Shown: one piece after another, positions 35,609 to 42,600 of the stretch
Position numbering within the stretch: position 1 is the first letter of the stretch
Layout of the letters: each line of letters opens with the position of its first letter
The notes under the pieces: generated by a model
Database searches by the model: none
Seen by the model: only the letters and a program-made list of their open reading frames with translations
Told to the model about the DNA's origin: nothing
Source of the DNA: an uncultured Verrucomicrobiae bacterium
Lineage (GTDB): Bacteria; Verrucomicrobiota; Verrucomicrobiia; Limisphaerales; UBA11358
DNA length: 64,000 nucleotides
Assembly (NCBI GenBank): GCA_963802965.1
Contig: CAWDKS010000003.1
Coordinates: 274,813-338,812, forward strand
Reading direction: 5' to 3'
Program-made: the position numbers and the translations under genes

Positions 35609-36051
35609 TCATCCGGCGGCAAAGTTGACGGTGTTGCTCGGTGGTGTGAGTGGATTCTCATCACCGTCCATCGGCACAATGTAAAACTTGTGGCCGGCCG
35701 CGTCCGCCGGATCATCGAAGTCAGTGGCCCAGGTGCGCAGAGCGCCTTGCACCTGTCCGAGGTTGCCTGTTTCGACGCCGTTTGCGCATTGTCTGATGTC
35801 GTCAATTTTGCCTGCGCCGTGGTGATGAGCGTGCCGAACGCCGTCAATGTTGGCGTGGGGGTTGCGAAGGTCGCGTTGCCCGTCAACGCGGTTTTTATAT
35901 CGCTGCATTTCTGAATGATTTCGCCATCCGACAAACGACTTAGATTTAACTTCACTTTAGCCATTTTTTTCCCTTTGGTTGTGGGCGCTATGACATCGTC
36001 ATAGAGCACGCCGCTGTCATAAGTGAGTCCAGGAGTGTCGTAAAATGCCAT
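35609..36051 (-). pseudogene. hypothetical gene apparently split by a frameshift near 35760
   Basis: ORF 35509-36051 reads MAKVKLNLSRLSDGEIIQKCSDIKTALTGNATF...KQATSD and then turns into implausible sequence. ORF 35609-35908 in another frame ends with a plausible ...GALRTWATDFDDPADAAGHKFYIVPMDGDENPLTPPSNTVNF. Confidence 0.35.
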
Positions 36052-36168
36052 AAGCGCCCTGAGTTGATTTTGCGCTTTTATTTCAACAAATTTTCCAAAA
36101 GCGTCAATCCACGGTTTTTGGTTTTCTTAAATCAAAATAATTCCAATGCTCATCGTCACGGGATGAGC

Positions 36169-36420
36169 GTTGACTGGAATCGAAAGCGTGTTGCGTAACC
36201 TGAAGCCTGTGCTGATGAGCAACGTATCTGTGTTAGTCAGCACACGATTTTCGCTGACTAGCACACCTTCTTTGCTGGTGAGCAAAACGTCCATGCTAAT
36301 CATCACAAGCCTCATGCCAACCAACAAAATTTCTGTGCTGACGAACATAAGGCTTATGCTGACGAACACAAGGTTTGTGCTAACGAACATAACAAAAATG
36401 TCAGTCAGAAAATGGCCGAT
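36169..36420. repeat. tandem array, 12 units of exactly 21 bp (consensus GCTGACGAACAnAAGGnTTnT), AT-rich
   Basis: Unit starts fall at 36169, 36190, 36211 ... 36400 with no indels. The array is covered by open frames on both strands (36170-36472 + and 36127-36483 -). Confidence 0.85.
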
Positions 36421-36637
36421 TTTGGCCGGAAACAAGGCCGTTTTGGAGAGAAAATTCGCCGGAACACCCTGAAAAACAAGCATTTAACCACGAATGTGAA
36501 ATATAGGCATGATTTCTTTGAAAGAATGATGATCCCTGGCGCGTAATAATGTTGTCCGACCGATTCAGAAGTTTAACCAGGACCACGTATGACAAAACCA
36601 CTAACGGCACTCATTTTAGTCTCAACACTGATTCTGG

Positions 36638-36815
36638 CTACGCCAATTTCTTCGCGATGTGCTCGTCCAGAATTTCCTGCACGGTCAGGGCAACGATGAC
36701 TTTATGACTGCGCTTGAAAAATGATTCGATTTCCTGCAACGCATCCGAAGAATAATCGAAGGATACGAAAAATCCCTTTTCGCAATCCTCGCGCATCATC
36801 ATGGCTTCAAAGGCG
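36638..36815 (-). pseudogene. C-terminal remnant of a beta-class DNA methyltransferase
   Basis: ...FEAMMMREDCEKGFFVSFDYSSDALQEIESFFKRSHKVIVALTVQEILDE resembles the C-terminal domain found after many N4/N6 MTase cores. There is no MTase core upstream of it. Confidence 0.5.
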
Positions 36816-38057
36816 TCAATGTTCGGCTTTGATTCCCGACACCAAGTATTCATAAAGCTCCTTTTTCGACGTGCGCTTTCGCAACGTGCGAACGGCCACT
36901 TCATTGAATCCCGCCTCTCGAAACATCGCGGCAAATATCTGTTCGACCGGCAACAGCACATCATAGAACTTTGAATTGCCAACGATGTAATTTATCTGCC
37001 CGCCACCTTTCACAACTTTATGAAGCGCCTGAACGTGATGCGTCATGTCGTGAAAATATTTGTCAACATAGGTGGCCAATACACCGCTACGTGAACGAAT
37101 GTCCTGAATGATTTTGTCAAAAGGTTCAAATGGAATCGGCTTTGCACCATTGCGATTCCACTTTTGAAGATTACTCGTGGCACAACCCCATGTTCCACCA
37201 ATGGCCTCCCAGTCAAGTTCTCCTGCTTGCCGACCATTTGTCAAAAATCCGAGCCAATACATATAAGGCCGCAGTTCGCGGATGTAACTCATGCGATTCG
37301 GATATGGCGGCGACGTGATAACGCAATCATAATGGTTGTGTTTCAATTCTTCATCGAGTCGTCGCGCGTCCACGAGCGAAACAGACACGTCGGCTTTCAT
37401 TGGCGAATATGCCGCATCAAGAACATTTTTTGATGCCCGCTGCCAATTTGCTACGAAGTCCGATCTTTTGTCGTGAAACAGGCTTGGATGGGCTGGGGCT
37501 TTGAAAGACATGGATTGATGGCCGAAGCTGACGTTGGCTGTTTCAATCATCACACGGCAAAAAACAATTTTGAGCAAATTCGCCACCGCAAGCTCGTCCG
37601 TCTTGGCACGAATACCTGCCATTGCGTGCCCAAGCAACCTCAAGGTTTCGGCATCCCACCATTTTTCTATTTCGTGGATTGCTGGAATCCATTCGTCGCT
37701 GCTGCCATTTGTGGCTTTGGCAAGCACCGCCAAAGATGCGTCGGCAAAGTTTTCCAATTCAGCCGTGGGATAATTCGCGCATTTGGTTTGTGTCAGCCAA
37801 ATCAGAAATGGATTGATGTCAATTGTGTCTGCCCGAATGCCACGCTCGGCGCATACCAGAGCAGTCGTGCCAGTTCCGCAAAACGGATCGAGAACGACTC
37901 CATCCGAAAGGTCAATTTCATCAAGAATATCGCCGACGAGATGCACGGAGTAAGCAGGCGTAAGCCGCAGCCAGCCATAACGAGTATGTTTCAGATTTGC
38001 TCTTTGAGTCAGGCGTTCTGTAAATCCAAATCGCGGTTGTTCGATGACGGTATTCAT
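36816..38057 (-). CDS. type II DNA methyltransferase (N6-adenine or N4-cytosine)
   Basis: 413 aa. Motif I is VVLDPFCGTGTTALV and motif IV is CVITSPPYPNR, with motif I preceding motif IV. AT-richer than the flanks. Confidence 0.85.
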   Translation of the reverse strand: MNTVIEQPRFGFTERLTQRANLKHTRYGWLRLTPAYSVHLVGDILDEIDLSDGVVLDPFCGTGTTALVCAERGIRADTIDINPFLIWLTQTKCANYPTAELENFADASLAVLAKATNGSSDEWIPAIHEIEKWWDAETLRLLGHAMAGIRAKTDELAVANLLKIVFCRVMIETANVSFGHQSMSFKAPAHPSLFHDKRSDFVANWQRASKNVLDAAYSPMKADVSVSLVDARRLDEELKHNHYDCVITSPPYPNRMSYIRELRPYMYWLGFLTNGRQAGELDWEAIGGTWGCATSNLQKWNRNGAKPIPFEPFDKIIQDIRSRSGVLATYVDKYFHDMTHHVQALHKVVKGGGQINYIVGNSKFYDVLLPVEQIFAAMFREAGFNEVAVRTLRKRTSKKELYEYLVSGIKAEH

Positions 38058-38935
38058 CAGGTTGAAAGCAGAGCTTTGAGAACATTCTCAACTTCGCTTT
38101 TGATACGAGGCGAGAAACGAGTGAAGAAGTCTGCCAAATCGTAACCGACAATTTCGCGGCAAAAAGAATAAGCGCTGGTGGTTGTTGAATCAGAAAGATT
38201 GCCGGTTAGAAGAACCCAAAGATTTTCGCGGTAACGCTGTGCGACATCACCATCAATTTGCGTCGAGAACAAAAGTAGAACAGGAACGTATAAATTCGCA
38301 TATGCTTTGGAGGCGTTAGCAATGTCTGCGTTCTGACGCTTGGAATCCTTGCTTTTGTAACCTTGCCGCGTTTCAAAGACGATTCCCTTGATATTTTTCA
38401 GCGTGTCGGCAGGAAGTCGAATTTGATTTGCAACTTCAACGAGCCAATTTTGAACTTTGGCGCGGGCTTCGGCGTTTTTCACGTCGTTGAGCGCCACCCT
38501 GCCATCAAGCGTCAACGTGCGTTGTTTGCCACGTGCGCCGTCAATTTTGTAACTCCAAATTGCCTGTTCTCGGTTTAGACCGAAATGGTCCTGCAACATT
38601 TGATAAAATACCCACTGTCCACCAATTCCGATTTGCCGATAAATTGATGTCATTCCACCTGCCGCCTTGTGTGCCGCATACATCAGCGGCGAATCAACTC
38701 CGAACCAATGATAAAATGGGTCGGCACTATACAGTGCAGTAAATTGTTCCAATGAGAACCCTTCTTTTCGTCCCTTTCCGAACCTAGGTTTATATTCCAG
38801 GCATTTGCGAAGAGCAGTTTGAATCAGCAGAAAATAACGCTCGTCCTTTGAAAGATTTGAGGGCAATGGCGGTGGCGGGCCTGCATTCTCTTCGAGAACG
38901 TCCAGTTCGGATGTAATTTCGTGTTCGTCGTTCAA
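38057..38935 (-). CDS. putative type II restriction endonuclease partner
   Basis: 292 aa, coupled to the MTase with its stop overlapping the MTase ATG at 38057. The family is not identifiable by eye. The call rests on position and on composition shared with the MTase. Confidence 0.5.
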   Translation of the reverse strand: MNDEHEITSELDVLEENAGPPPPLPSNLSKDERYFLLIQTALRKCLEYKPRFGKGRKEGFSLEQFTALYSADPFYHWFGVDSPLMYAAHKAAGGMTSIYRQIGIGGQWVFYQMLQDHFGLNREQAIWSYKIDGARGKQRTLTLDGRVALNDVKNAEARAKVQNWLVEVANQIRLPADTLKNIKGIVFETRQGYKSKDSKRQNADIANASKAYANLYVPVLLLFSTQIDGDVAQRYRENLWVLLTGNLSDSTTTSAYSFCREIVGYDLADFFTRFSPRIKSEVENVLKALLST

Positions 38936-38980
38936 GCGTTTTTTTGCCGTTCAATTCAGGCGCATTGATTTTTAACAGAT

Positions 38981-39451
38981 TTACGTCATCGGCACGAGAG
39001 CGTTTTGAAAATTATTTTCTCCGAAAATCTGGTCGAGCATGACCTTGACGTAGTCGCTGGCGTGCCAGTCACAGTGGTGATAAAAGCTGCCGGTCTTTTT
39101 GAGGACGCGGGCCAGTTGCACGCAGCGCGGGCGCATGTAGTCAATATAGGCGCGGGTGGATTCGTGGCGGTCTTCAAAGGCGCGCTTCTCCTTGGTCTCG
39201 CCCCAAAAGACCTCGTAGTTGCGGTTGGAGTTGAAGGGCGGGTCAATGTAAATCAAATCCACGCAGGCGTCGGGCAGCTTGGCGAGCTGTTCCAGATTGT
39301 CGCCGCAATAAACGACGCGGGTGTCGAGGAGGCTGCTGGCGCGTAGCGGCGTTGGTGACAACGCGGATTCTTTGGCGTCGGCGTTGGGTTTCCGCGCCTT
39401 CACAGGCGCGGCTACGGTCGCGGAAGATTTCGCAGCGGCCTTTTTTGCCAT
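38981..39451 (-). pseudogene. N-terminal fragment of a beta-class DNA methyltransferase
   Basis: From MAKKAAAKSS. Contains VDLIYIDPPFNSNRNY (motif IV first) and LDQIFGENNFQN, then diverges (ALVPMT-stop) where NEIIW-type sequence and motif I should follow. Confidence 0.7.
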
Positions 39452-39655
39452 GCGGGGAGAATAATAGTTTTCAACCAGCTTGCAAGTTCGCGTCGCTGCC
39501 AATTGTTTTGCCTTTGATCAGGGACGGCGACACGCCGTCCCTCCCATTGAGCTTGCTGTCGCCCCGGCCGGGGCTTGATTTTTTTAATCGCACAAACCCA
39601 CGGTTTTACCGTGGGCTACCATCGGTCGCTGCTCCGCAGCTACAAATGGATGGCC

Positions 39656-42600
39656 CTAAAAACTCAACTGCAGGCTCACGGCCAGGGTGCGCGAGCGCGG
39701 AAGTTCGTTGTAAAGGTTGAGCGGGTTCAAACTGTAATTTTGACCGGCGATGTTGAGCAGGCCGAGCGTGAATTCAGCTTTTCGATGCAGGAAACGGTAA
39801 CCGGCAAACGCGTTGAATTGCCAGAAGTCAGCGCCCGGTTCACCGGGGGGAGTATAGCCGCTGTTGTTTTGACCATACCAATTGGCCTCTCCCCGGGCAA
39901 AGAAACCGCAGGGATGATTGTAAACCGCCGACAAACCCAATTCCTGTAAAACCCCCTTCATCCGCTGACTTGGAATTATCGGATTACTGATGGGTGGTGG
40001 ACTGACCGGCACATCGGGAAAATTGTCATTCAAAACCGCCTGGCTAATGAGATAGCGCGCGCCGAGCGACCAGTCCCGGCCCAGCAACTGGTTGGCGGTG
40101 AACAGCAGCGATTTTTCCTGGTAATCCAAATTCTCGCGCAGTCCTTGCGGAATGGGATCGTCAAACCCGTCGGGATAATAATTGAAGACGCCGTCAACCC
40201 GGTTCACGGTGGAGTTCAATATCTCGCCGGACAGGCCCAGATAAGTCCCGGTGCTGAATTTTTGCTCCAGCGAAAGGTCGTAGGTTTCAAATTTGGCCCC
40301 GGCATTGTCCCCGGCGATGGATTCAGGGATGATGCTGCGGAAGGATTGGACAAAGCCCGCCACCTGCGAAGGTTCCAGTTGATAGCTTTGGTCCACGCTC
40401 GCGCCGGCCAACGAGCGCGTGTAGGCAAAACGGACGGTGGTTTTGTCCAGCGGCGTCCAAATCAGGCCGGCTTTGGGCGAAACCTGATCCGCCGGCGTGT
40501 CGTTCCCGGAAATGGGCGCGCTCCGAAAATTTTCCGGGTAGGTGATATGGTCATAAGTCACACCGCCAATCAATTGCAACGGCTCGAAAATCCGCCATTG
40601 ATGATAGCCATAAAAACTGACGCGCTTGAACAGGGTAGTGAAGTCCTGTTCCGGCGGAGGATCCAGGAAATCAGCGGTGACGGGGACAGGATTGGCCTGT
40701 AAAACCGAAGTGTCAAAATGACCATACTGGATACGCGCGCCGACAATGGTATTGTGGACCGGCCCCTCCCAAATCTGCTGCAGTTCTCCCGAATAAATAT
40801 CCAACCTGTTCCAATAAAGTTCACTCGCCGTAATATTCTGCGCAGACTCGAAGGTGCTTAAAGTGGGGACGCCGATGAAATTGTTCGGAAAGACTTGAAA
40901 CAGGGAAGGCTGCGCGAAGTTGTTGAACGAACCAGTGTCGTTGAGACGGGCCGCAAAAAACAAAGTGTGGACCCCGGGACTCCATTCATGATGATAGCCA
41001 AGGCTTACAATTGGAGTTTGATTTTCCTTTGCGCGAAAAGTCGGGCTGGCCAGGCTTTGGTCGTAGTATTGGGACAGGTCTCCGCTTTCCGCCTCGTATT
41101 GCTGGACATTCACATAAACACTGTCCTGCGGCGTAAGCTGTTGCTTGACCGTCAGGAAAAATCGCCGCTGATAAATGTCGTCGTTCGGGCGCTGGCCCGG
41201 GTCGGAATGATAGGAGGCCTCAAAGTCATAGCTGAAATTCCCGAACGTCCCGAACTGCGCACCCGACTGGGTCCAGGCCCCGCGGCTGAGATATTCCGTG
41301 TCCGAAGCGACCCCAAAGCGATTGCGTGTGAACAACGGGGAATATTCCTGCTGTGAGATGGTGGGCGAGAACATGCCGGCGCTCACCGGGGCCAGCAAAT
41401 TGGCCAGCAGATATTCAGTCTCGGCGGGGGTTTCATAACGGAGATTAATCTCGTTCGGATCAACCAGTTCATGATAGCTGTCCGCCAGAAAATGATGCGC
41501 GGAGTAATTCGCGTAATCGTCATTCACCGCCCGGGAGGCCTCGCGCACGGCCACGTCATTCATGCCCGCGTCCCGATACATCGCCGCCAGATTCGCGCTG
41601 CGCACCGCCTGGTCCTGGTCCAGCAGCAGTTGCGAGCGATAGACGCTCCGGTTGTCATTCAATGACTGCGATTTTTCCAAATCGCGGATGGCGTCGTTGA
41701 TCCGGTTGTTTTCCTGGTTGAGCAGGGCGGAATAAAGCCACGGCGTCGGGTCATTGGGATCCAATTTTTCCGCGAGCTGGAATTCCCTGGCGGCGCGCGG
41801 AAAATCGCCCGCATCCGCATAAGCCTTGCCCAGATAGCTTCGCAACCCGGCGCGCTGCGGCTCGAGCGCCGCGGCCACCAGCAGGTCTTCGCGTCCGCCC
41901 CGGGCGTCGCCGCGGCGGATGCGGCACAGACCGCGACCCAGCCACGCGTTGCCGAGGGCGGAGTCCACGGCGAGCGCCTGGTCGAACCAGCCGATGGCTT
42001 CGCCGGCGCGATTTTGCGCCGCGAGCAGGAATCCCTTCAACGCGAGCGCCTGGGCATTGCGCGGCGCAAGGGCGAGGCTTTTGTCCAGGGCGTCGAGCGC
42101 CCGGTCGTTATGACCGAAACTAAATTCCAATTCCGCCACCCGCTCCCGGGCAAAACCGAAATCCGGCGAGTTGGTCGCGGCCTGCCGGGCGGAATCCAGC
42201 GCGGCCGGCAATGAAACTCCGGGGATGGCGCGCGATTGTTCGTAATAGGAGTCCGCCAGGAATTCCGCGGCCAGTTGTGGACGGACCGCCGCCGGGGCCG
42301 GCTGCCGCTTCACGGCGGCGATGAGCCGGCGCAGGGACAGGGCAATCCGTTGCGGACGGCTGGAGGCATTGGTGACGGACAAGGAAGCCAGCACCGTTTC
42401 GGCCGGTTCAACCTGTCCGACACCGAGAAGCAGGCCGGCATAATAAACCCGCTCCGCGTCGGAGCCGGGCTGCCGCCCGACCGGATATTGGGCCAGCGCC
42501 ACCGGCAGATCGCCCGCGCGGTAAGCCCGGAGGGATTCGCCGAGGATTTTTTGTTCTTCCGGTGTGAACGGCAAATCGTTCGGATCAATCACCGCCGGAT

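Follow-up and report, generated by a model that had tools for sequence, protein, structure and literature searches.

We find that a Type II restriction-modification (R-M) system sits inside a DNA methylase gene, in place of that gene's own core, in a 64,000-nt stretch of DNA (the window) from an uncultured Verrucomicrobiae bacterium (assembly GCA_963802965.1, contig CAWDKS010000003.1). With a probability of roughly 85%, we read this locus as a Type II cassette that replaced the methylase core, that has a junction of single origin, and that spread horizontally, likely via homology between the conserved end blocks of the disrupted gene. The same methylase gene is broken repeatedly in other genomes, mostly by defence genes. 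All coordinates are positions in the whole window; L-numbers denote compared loci and P-numbers denote compared proteins.

Four open reading frames (ORFs) were confirmed at the locus, all on the minus strand: 38981-39451, 38057-38935, 36816-38057 and a short one ending at 36638. The cassette consists of a leader, a gene for a 292-amino acid (aa) enzyme and an overlapping gene for a 413-aa methylase, and it replaces codons 151-457 of a 518-codon gene. A first-pass annotation of this DNA had described an R-M pair nested within, and replacing the core of, an older beta-class methyltransferase, and all of the parts were found where it had placed them. The length of 114 aa that automatic ORF calling gives the last of them (36638-36982) is an artefact of an upstream in-frame TTG. 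The features of the locus are as follows.

39002..39451, minus strand: 5' remnant of the methylase/Mrr-like fusion gene, from motif IV (DPPF) to just before motif VIII (NEIIW); partial PF01555 match and alignment with L009.
38981..39001, minus strand: junction tail of six unrelated codons (ALVPMT) and a TAA stop, which ends the truncated ORF; read from the sequence.
38936..39000, minus strand: cassette leader, 65 nt, GC content 0.429, belonging to the mobile R-M unit; conserved over the ~40 nt that lead up to the nuclease start.
38057..38935, minus strand: Type II restriction endonuclease (R) gene, 292 aa, TTG start; PADLOC REase_II, PDLC03512.
36816..38057, minus strand: cognate DNA methylase (M) gene, 413 aa, motif I (DPFCGTGTT) followed by SPPY; PADLOC MTase_II, PDLC03224.
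36638..36826, minus strand: 3' remnant of the same methylase/Mrr-like gene with its stop; blastn to L089 and tblastn of L009.

The two remnants come from one gene. A single intact homolog, a 518-aa protein encoded at L009 (7905-9458) in a Verrucomicrobiae metagenome-assembled genome (MAG), spans both of them, in agreement with the earlier proposal of a common source and not with an origin from two unrelated full-length proteins. The N-terminal fragment (N fragment; ORF 38981-39451, ATG start, 156 aa) carries DPPF and breaks after ...LDQIFGENNFQN (GENNFQN). It corresponds to L009 residues 19-150 by tblastn (85% aa identity), with a DNA core that is 94% identical, and it matches PF01555 only at profile positions 1-78 of 221 (E = 1.6e-13). 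Over 39001-39332, its DNA is 93-95% identical to the conserved N-terminal blocks (N blocks) of L001, L002, L009 and L254-L256. The C-terminal fragment (C fragment) has no Pfam match on its own, and corresponds to L009 residues 458-521 by tblastn (91% aa identity); its DNA is 88% identical to L089 over 36826-36637 by blastn. The first-pass annotation had recognized this fragment correctly and had placed it at 36638-36815, an extent that needs revision given that homology runs from 36826. A search with both fragments joined returned 3,047 relatives, among which P0003, P0002, P0006 and P0027 each hold both ends. Absent from the window are L009 residues 151-457, which comprise the target recognition domain (TRD), motifs X and I-III, and most of the C-terminal domain. 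The motif I to III core of the old enzyme is thus missing, as had been claimed.

Most of the 80 species genomes that we compared have the intact arrangement, in which an N block (~115 aa) is followed by ~170 aa of variable sequence, then by a block with motif I and finally by a C block of 128 aa. The motif order of the protein is IV...VIII-TRD-X-I. In intact relatives, the C block has a D...QVK motif and matches Mrr_cat (PF04471) close to threshold. The N fragment of the window clearly descends from the beta-class PF01555 family and holds only part of its methylase domain, and the C fragment is devoid of the Mrr_cat catalytic core, as the D of GVDG (~421) and QVK (448-450) lie in the deleted part. 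We infer that both remnants are non-functional, because the 5' piece lacks motif I and the TRD and the 3' piece lacks the nuclease catalytic residues. The 5' remnant is probably a pseudogene. It has two unique nonsynonymous changes within the otherwise invariant YYHCDWHASHY motif, and these are consistent with relaxed constraint.

Scanning one genome per species, we found the N block in at least 586 species genomes, at 75-95% aa identity. Its hosts are Verrucomicrobiota, Acidobacteriota, Planctomycetota, Kiritimatiellota, Actinomycetes, Chloroflexota and Alphaproteobacteria. The intact gene had no conserved neighbours in 31 loci, and on these grounds we rejected its membership of a multi-gene system. 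The disrupted gene is a solitary, horizontally spread gene that encodes a methylase fused to a Mrr-like nuclease domain. It is therefore not simply the resident orphan methyltransferase that had first been proposed. Note that the gene was also intact on all 20 of the IMG/VR viral or proviral contigs that carry a close relative of it (L174-L193), and phages may be a vehicle that spreads it across phyla. To our knowledge, no fusion of a methylase with a Mrr-like domain has been characterized.

Shortened forms of the gene occur too. In L089-L093 (P0027, P0042 and P0071), an in-frame deletion joins methylase residue 102 to residue 447 and leaves a 159-aa ORF. This form is found on at least nine contigs beside an HTH_17 gene, and its C-terminal part is nearly identical to the C fragment of the window. 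Comparable fusions, made by deletions that break elsewhere, are seen in P0006 and P0011.

The pair of genes that replaced the methylase core is, on the features of its sequence, an ordinary Type II system that is probably active. The 413-aa protein has motif I (DPFCGTGTT) near its N-terminus, where PF01555 and UPF0020 match, and SPPY at about residue 257; it matches the PADLOC model MTase_II PDLC03224 over its full length (E = 8.7e-32). Its earlier description as a complete methyltransferase with motif I before SPPY is therefore accurate. The SPPY region also shows a weak match to N4-cytosine methylases in the PDB and, together with SPPY itself, hints at N4-methylcytosine as the product. Of 80 metagenome loci, 76 have the nuclease gene first and the methylase gene after it on the same strand (three of the remainder run into a contig edge, and one is inverted). 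In the window, the nuclease stop and the methylase start overlap as TGATG, which makes translational coupling plausible. A restriction endonuclease homolog, a methylase with motif I and SPPY, and adjacency of the R and M genes are thus all present. We predict that the pair is intact and active because all family-invariant residues have been kept and the two genes overlap in the same orientation. Its methylase would modify the recognition site, at N4-cytosine or N6-adenine to judge by SPPY, and DNA without this mark would be cut by the nuclease. The cassette, being co-oriented with the broken methylase gene, may be transcribed from that gene's promoter. A promoter and terminator scan of the locus was uninformative, with fewer promoter-like sites than in shuffled sequence.

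The 292-aa nuclease belongs to a catalogued but uncharacterized Type II family. It matches the PADLOC model REase_II PDLC03512 (E = 9e-74; residues 29-290 against profile positions 9-273 of 276), and we retrieved 4,133 homologs, all of which are unnamed and without Pfam domains. The first-pass annotation was right to call it a putative endonuclease; its view that the protein belongs to no recognizable family gives way to membership of a family with more than 4,000 homologs. The TTG start is also used in L003 and L004. Residues D144, E188, K194 and K196 are invariant in 30 diverse family members and are candidate catalytic residues. An AlphaFold model (mean confidence score, pLDDT, 85.8) has a central mixed sheet, and its Foldseek matches are weak and mostly to PD-(D/E)xK nucleases (Card1, VC1899, EcoRII-C, PspGI, Ecl18kI and Can2). 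Pfam and NCBIfam scans of the protein gave noise only, as did scans of the 30 family members taken singly; an Arm-DNA-bind_3 match (E = 0.013) was taken as noise. There was no match in a profile search of PDB sequences, and none in a tblastn search of plasmids.

The cassette meets the methylase gene at two well-placed junctions. On the left (39002/39001; slashes mark junctions throughout), methylase homology ends at 39002 (...TTTCAAAAC) and is followed by the tail of six unrelated codons and the stop. The last ~40 nt of the leader, directly before the start of the R gene, are conserved with L003, L004, L104 and L117. On the right (36827/36826), cassette homology ends at about 36827 and C-fragment homology begins at 36826. 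From a comparison of methylase C-termini with L003, L004, L094 and L104, the cassette methylase has lost its natural stop: its three last codons and TGA come from C-fragment DNA, read in another frame. Searches for terminal repeats or target duplication around the cassette found only short, chance-level repeats in 35900-39700, and comparison of the junction sequences with relatives revealed no target duplication. No tRNA genes that could serve as integration targets were present in 25-50 kb.

Related loci show that the junction between the N block and the cassette arose once. The left junction recurs in at least three other assemblies: CAAAAC/GCTCTCG is identical in L104 and L117 and is present with a 9-nt deletion in L004-L006, and the right junction of L104 lies within about 8 nt of that in the window. 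Copies that share the left junction have only 75-84% DNA identity and lie in unrelated genomic contexts; the outer flanks of the window had no synteny with any of the compared loci. Close relatives of the cassette form a decay series, with decayed flanks in L097 and L100 and tiny remnants in L098 and L108. Because the same junction recurs at 75-84% identity in other contexts, and because flanks are found in decay, the insertion is old and has moved between contexts, and is not a recent event in the genome of the window.

Two cassettes stand between housekeeping genes. That of L003 (7940-8000) lies between genes for a saccharopine-dehydrogenase-like protein and an Orn/DAP/Arg decarboxylase, and still has some 40 nt of the N fragment in decayed form; it therefore descends from an ancestor embedded in the methylase gene. 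That of L007 has no methylase remnant. We considered whether this R-M family targets the methylase gene as a general rule, and rejected this, as most of the 80 R-M loci are without methylase remnants. Among these loci, remnants are limited to a clade of cassettes that are at least 86% identical, plus L064 and L173.

The first-pass annotation had seen in the locus a concrete snapshot of R-M turnover, with one R-M system displacing the catalytic core of a resident orphan methylase. Read in this way, the insertion would be recent and local. Base composition seems at first to fit. The GC content of the N fragment (0.578) is close to that of the whole window (0.584), the R gene (0.464) and M gene (0.485) are AT-richer, as had been reported, and the N fragment is barely decayed. 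However, it is not only the R-M pair that is AT-rich, since the same is true of the C fragment (0.471) and the ~600 bp downstream of it (36052-36637; 0.428). Furthermore, the N block is nearly the same in all hosts (80-95% DNA identity across phyla), and its GC content therefore says little about residence. The recurrence of the junction, at 75-84% identity and beside different neighbours in other assemblies, also contradicts a recent local event, which we consider highly improbable. An assembly artefact is less credible still. Many genomes from the same habitats carry an N block so alike as to be nearly a repeat, and a chimeric join could in principle form at such a block conserved among co-occurring genomes. 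However, JGI, ENA and Logan each provide independent assemblies with this junction, and both gene products of the window are on record from a 1.14-Mb contig. We have next to no doubt that the arrangement is real.

The old, travelling insertion in the window is one of many in this gene. We surveyed 80 species genomes taken from the 586 or more with an N block. The gene was a single intact ORF in 38, collinear but broken in about six, cut off by a contig end in about ten, and interrupted in about 20. Interrupted copies make up roughly 30% of those in evaluable genomes. At least 17 different cargos, most of them R-M or other defence genes, were found to separate the N and C remnants. The cargos, and the loci that hold them, are listed here.

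The R-M pair described above: window.
A 50%-identical pair of the same family: L064, L173.
XhoI-like nuclease and Eco57I-type methylase: L076.
C5 methylase and a partner of no known function: L062.
DUF7687 protein and D12 methylase: L077.
Dam-like methylase and a 578-aa protein: L074.
A 311-aa protein and a beta methylase: L256.
Beta methylase and EcoO109I-like nuclease: L254.
Beta methylase, BglI/SfiI-like nuclease and a helix-turn-helix (HTH) protein: L258.
HaeII-like nuclease: L054.
PDC-M38: L072, L073.
HerA-like ATPase: L078.
DUF4062/PDC-S60: L061.
Several unannotated genes: L002, L080, L255, L259, L001.

The positions at which these cargos begin are clustered. Six different cargos start right after the AAC or AAT codon of Asn147, as follows.

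Window: CAAAAC/GCTCTC.
L001: CGCAAC/GTTGTA.
L254: ACCAAC/TGAACC.
L256: CCCAAT/GTCGGT.
L258: CTAAAC/GTAAAA.
L259: TTCAAC/GTGTAG.

The first nucleotide of the cargo is G in five of the six, and the first two are GT in four. Two more protein tails break at the Asn147 codon. In the allele group with Asn147 junctions, a palindrome, GAAAATAATTTTC, lies 6 nt upstream of the junction. A second cluster of left junctions falls within 13 nt at HCDWHASHY (L064, L173, L061, L062, L078, L080 and L077), and right junctions gather within about 12 nt at FEFENW, where the Mrr-like domain begins (L064, L173, L002, L077 and L080). In L064 (9730-9745) and L173 (4445-4470), the cassette methylase is in frame with the downstream Mrr-like module, with one or two stops between them, and read-through would give a methylase-nuclease fusion.

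Such precision raises the possibility of an enzyme acting in trans (a recombinase, a HUH-type nuclease or similar) that inserts promoterless defence cassettes at a set position, in the manner of an attI site. The shared start after Asn147, the additional tails that break there and the two clusters at HCDWHASHY and FEFENW all point this way, as does the orientation of the cargos, 12 of 14 being co-oriented with the broken gene. A gene for a Y1 (IS200/IS605-type) transposase lies 1.4 kb downstream of the Asn147 junction in L001 (11923-12378), and is the only mobility gene near any junction. However, we detected no recombinase or transposase in or beside the cargo in the window or in most of the loci. 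Terminal repeats, target duplication and a common sequence after the Asn147 junctions were likewise not found, and the junctions share no common hairpin, folding no better than shuffled sequences (z-scores near 0). Right junctions are scattered. We therefore regard such an enzyme as a tentative and rather unlikely explanation. It would make the methylase/Mrr-like gene a cross-phylum docking platform, with site-specific joining after Asn147, hot spots at HCDWHASHY and FEFENW, and conserved ends that spread the cassettes, a picture that we think unlikely as a whole. The R-M pair of the window would then be one occupant of the platform.

Selection could also concentrate cargos in this gene. If the resident Mrr-like domain attacks foreign-methylated DNA, then an incoming R-M system could establish itself only where the gene has been knocked out, and insertion into the gene would achieve both steps at once. 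The intact protein does have a Mrr_cat-like domain with D...QVK, and at least nine of the ~17 cargos bring their own methylase. That incoming methylases come into conflict with methyl-specific nucleases is an established idea (PMC2993543). However, several cargos come without a methylase (PDC-M38, the HerA-like ATPase and DUF4062/PDC-S60), and insertion often leaves the Mrr-like module complete (L002, L064, L077, L080 and L256). Nor can selection give single-codon precision, and methyl-dependence of the Mrr-like domain is an assumption. We find this explanation doubtful. Neither idea fits all of the data: one is without a recombinase or sites, and the other has to accommodate cargos without a methylase.

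We favour replacement of the methylase core by a cassette that subsequently spread through homology in the flanking blocks. The composite, or the cassette with methylase-derived flanks, would have arrived in the genome of the window horizontally. It most likely entered by homologous recombination at the very conserved blocks that end the methylase gene. These would act as portable homology arms, so that a transferred copy could exchange the middle of a resident one for whatever cargo it carries. Recombination inside the N block is evident from its ESTRAY and ENTKAY haplotypes, which are distributed independently of cargo. Similarly, L254 and L256 agree in both end blocks (N and C) and over at least 2.7 kb of downstream DNA (70-85% identity), whereas their cargos and upstream DNA differ. 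These two loci also share a left boundary about 50 nt before the methylase start, which suggests that in them a larger mobile element has the methylase gene at its margin.

Several points weigh against replacement and spread through homology arms as a full account. Recombination via the arms does not alone explain why six cargos start at the same codon, and the presence of an intact resident copy at this chromosomal site before the cassette arrived is presumed. The N fragment is still an open 156-codon ORF with 94% DNA identity to the intact gene, and the case for a pseudogene consists only of the missing domains and two odd substitutions. As for the pair, its activity is a prediction, and the best Foldseek match of the nuclease to solved PD-(D/E)xK nucleases is weak (E = 4.6e-3, TM score ~0.3).

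Two other features of the window are worth recording. Just downstream of the C fragment, within the AT-rich, ORF-poor segment 36052-36637, a unit of 21 nt, TGCTGACGAACAYAAGGYTTR, is repeated head to tail about nine times in degenerate form (36205-36400). Tandem Repeats Finder (TRF) reported 2.7 clean copies at 36336-36392 and a family with 63-nt periodicity from 36207. These repeats look like iterons or protein-binding repeats, and they have no homolog in any compared locus. Across the window (1-64000), several palindromes are rarer than expected: GTAC (6 observed versus ~60 expected), GATC (148 versus 294), CAGCTG (1 versus 12.6) and GTCGAC (1 versus 9), with GGWCC and CTCGAG also low. Such avoidance suggests long exposure to several restriction systems. 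We dropped it as a guide to the recognition site of the pair, to which it cannot be tied.

Taken alone, the locus is an ordinary case of an R-M system overwriting another modification gene. Like orthodox Type II systems, the pair comprises two adjacent, co-oriented and overlapping genes that each match a catalogued Type II family over their full length, in a pairing conserved at 76 of the 80 loci of the family. It differs in its nuclease, for which there is no Pfam or NCBIfam model or solved relative, and in having no controller protein. The intact ancestor of the disrupted gene resembles the beta-class methylases CcrM, M.RsrI and M.MboIIA (PF01555) by sequence and in motif order, and its C-terminal 128 aa resemble Mrr-type nucleases; in the window, neither domain is complete. 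R-M units are known to insert into, or substitute for, other R-M genes and to enter operon-like clusters (Furuta, Abe and Kobayashi 2010, PMC2853133). As in those cases, an R-M unit without a mobility gene here replaces part of another modification gene, and the L003 copy lies inside an operon-like pair of housekeeping genes. Unlike them, the window shows no long target duplication or flanking inverted repeats, and the target is the interior of one widely spread gene that has been struck repeatedly across phyla.

The interest of the locus thus lies in a single conserved, horizontally spread methylase gene that is repeatedly gutted by defence cassettes at nucleotide-precise junctions. Should a dedicated mechanism or arm-mediated exchange be responsible, the gene would be a simple, searchable marker for new defence genes, given that several of its cargos are unannotated. 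It would also represent a new way for defence genes to move between phyla, and a natural test case for methyl-directed nucleases against incoming methylases.

In how it works, though not in its parts, the gene resembles the attI platform of integrons, where many unrelated cassettes are inserted at one point after a conserved, promoter-bearing segment, mostly in the same orientation. It has no integrase, no attC-like folded sites and no shared core sequence, and its cargos are whole operons with their own leaders. Defence hotspots provide another comparison, including those of phages and of integrative and conjugative elements (ICEs), and the minimal mobile elements of Neisseria. The core defence hotspots of Pseudomonas aeruginosa are bracketed by conserved genes (PMC10250203). 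The methylase gene shares with such hotspots its conserved flanks and variable defence cargo, recombination in the flanks, and the presence of the same element with other cargo (L254 and L256). Literature searches returned no description of this intragenic hotspot, and we regard a cross-phylum hotspot of this kind, with precise junctions, as a new variant. Here, the flanks are the two halves of one protein-coding gene that the cargo destroys, the gene is mobile and not core, and the junctions are precise to the codon.

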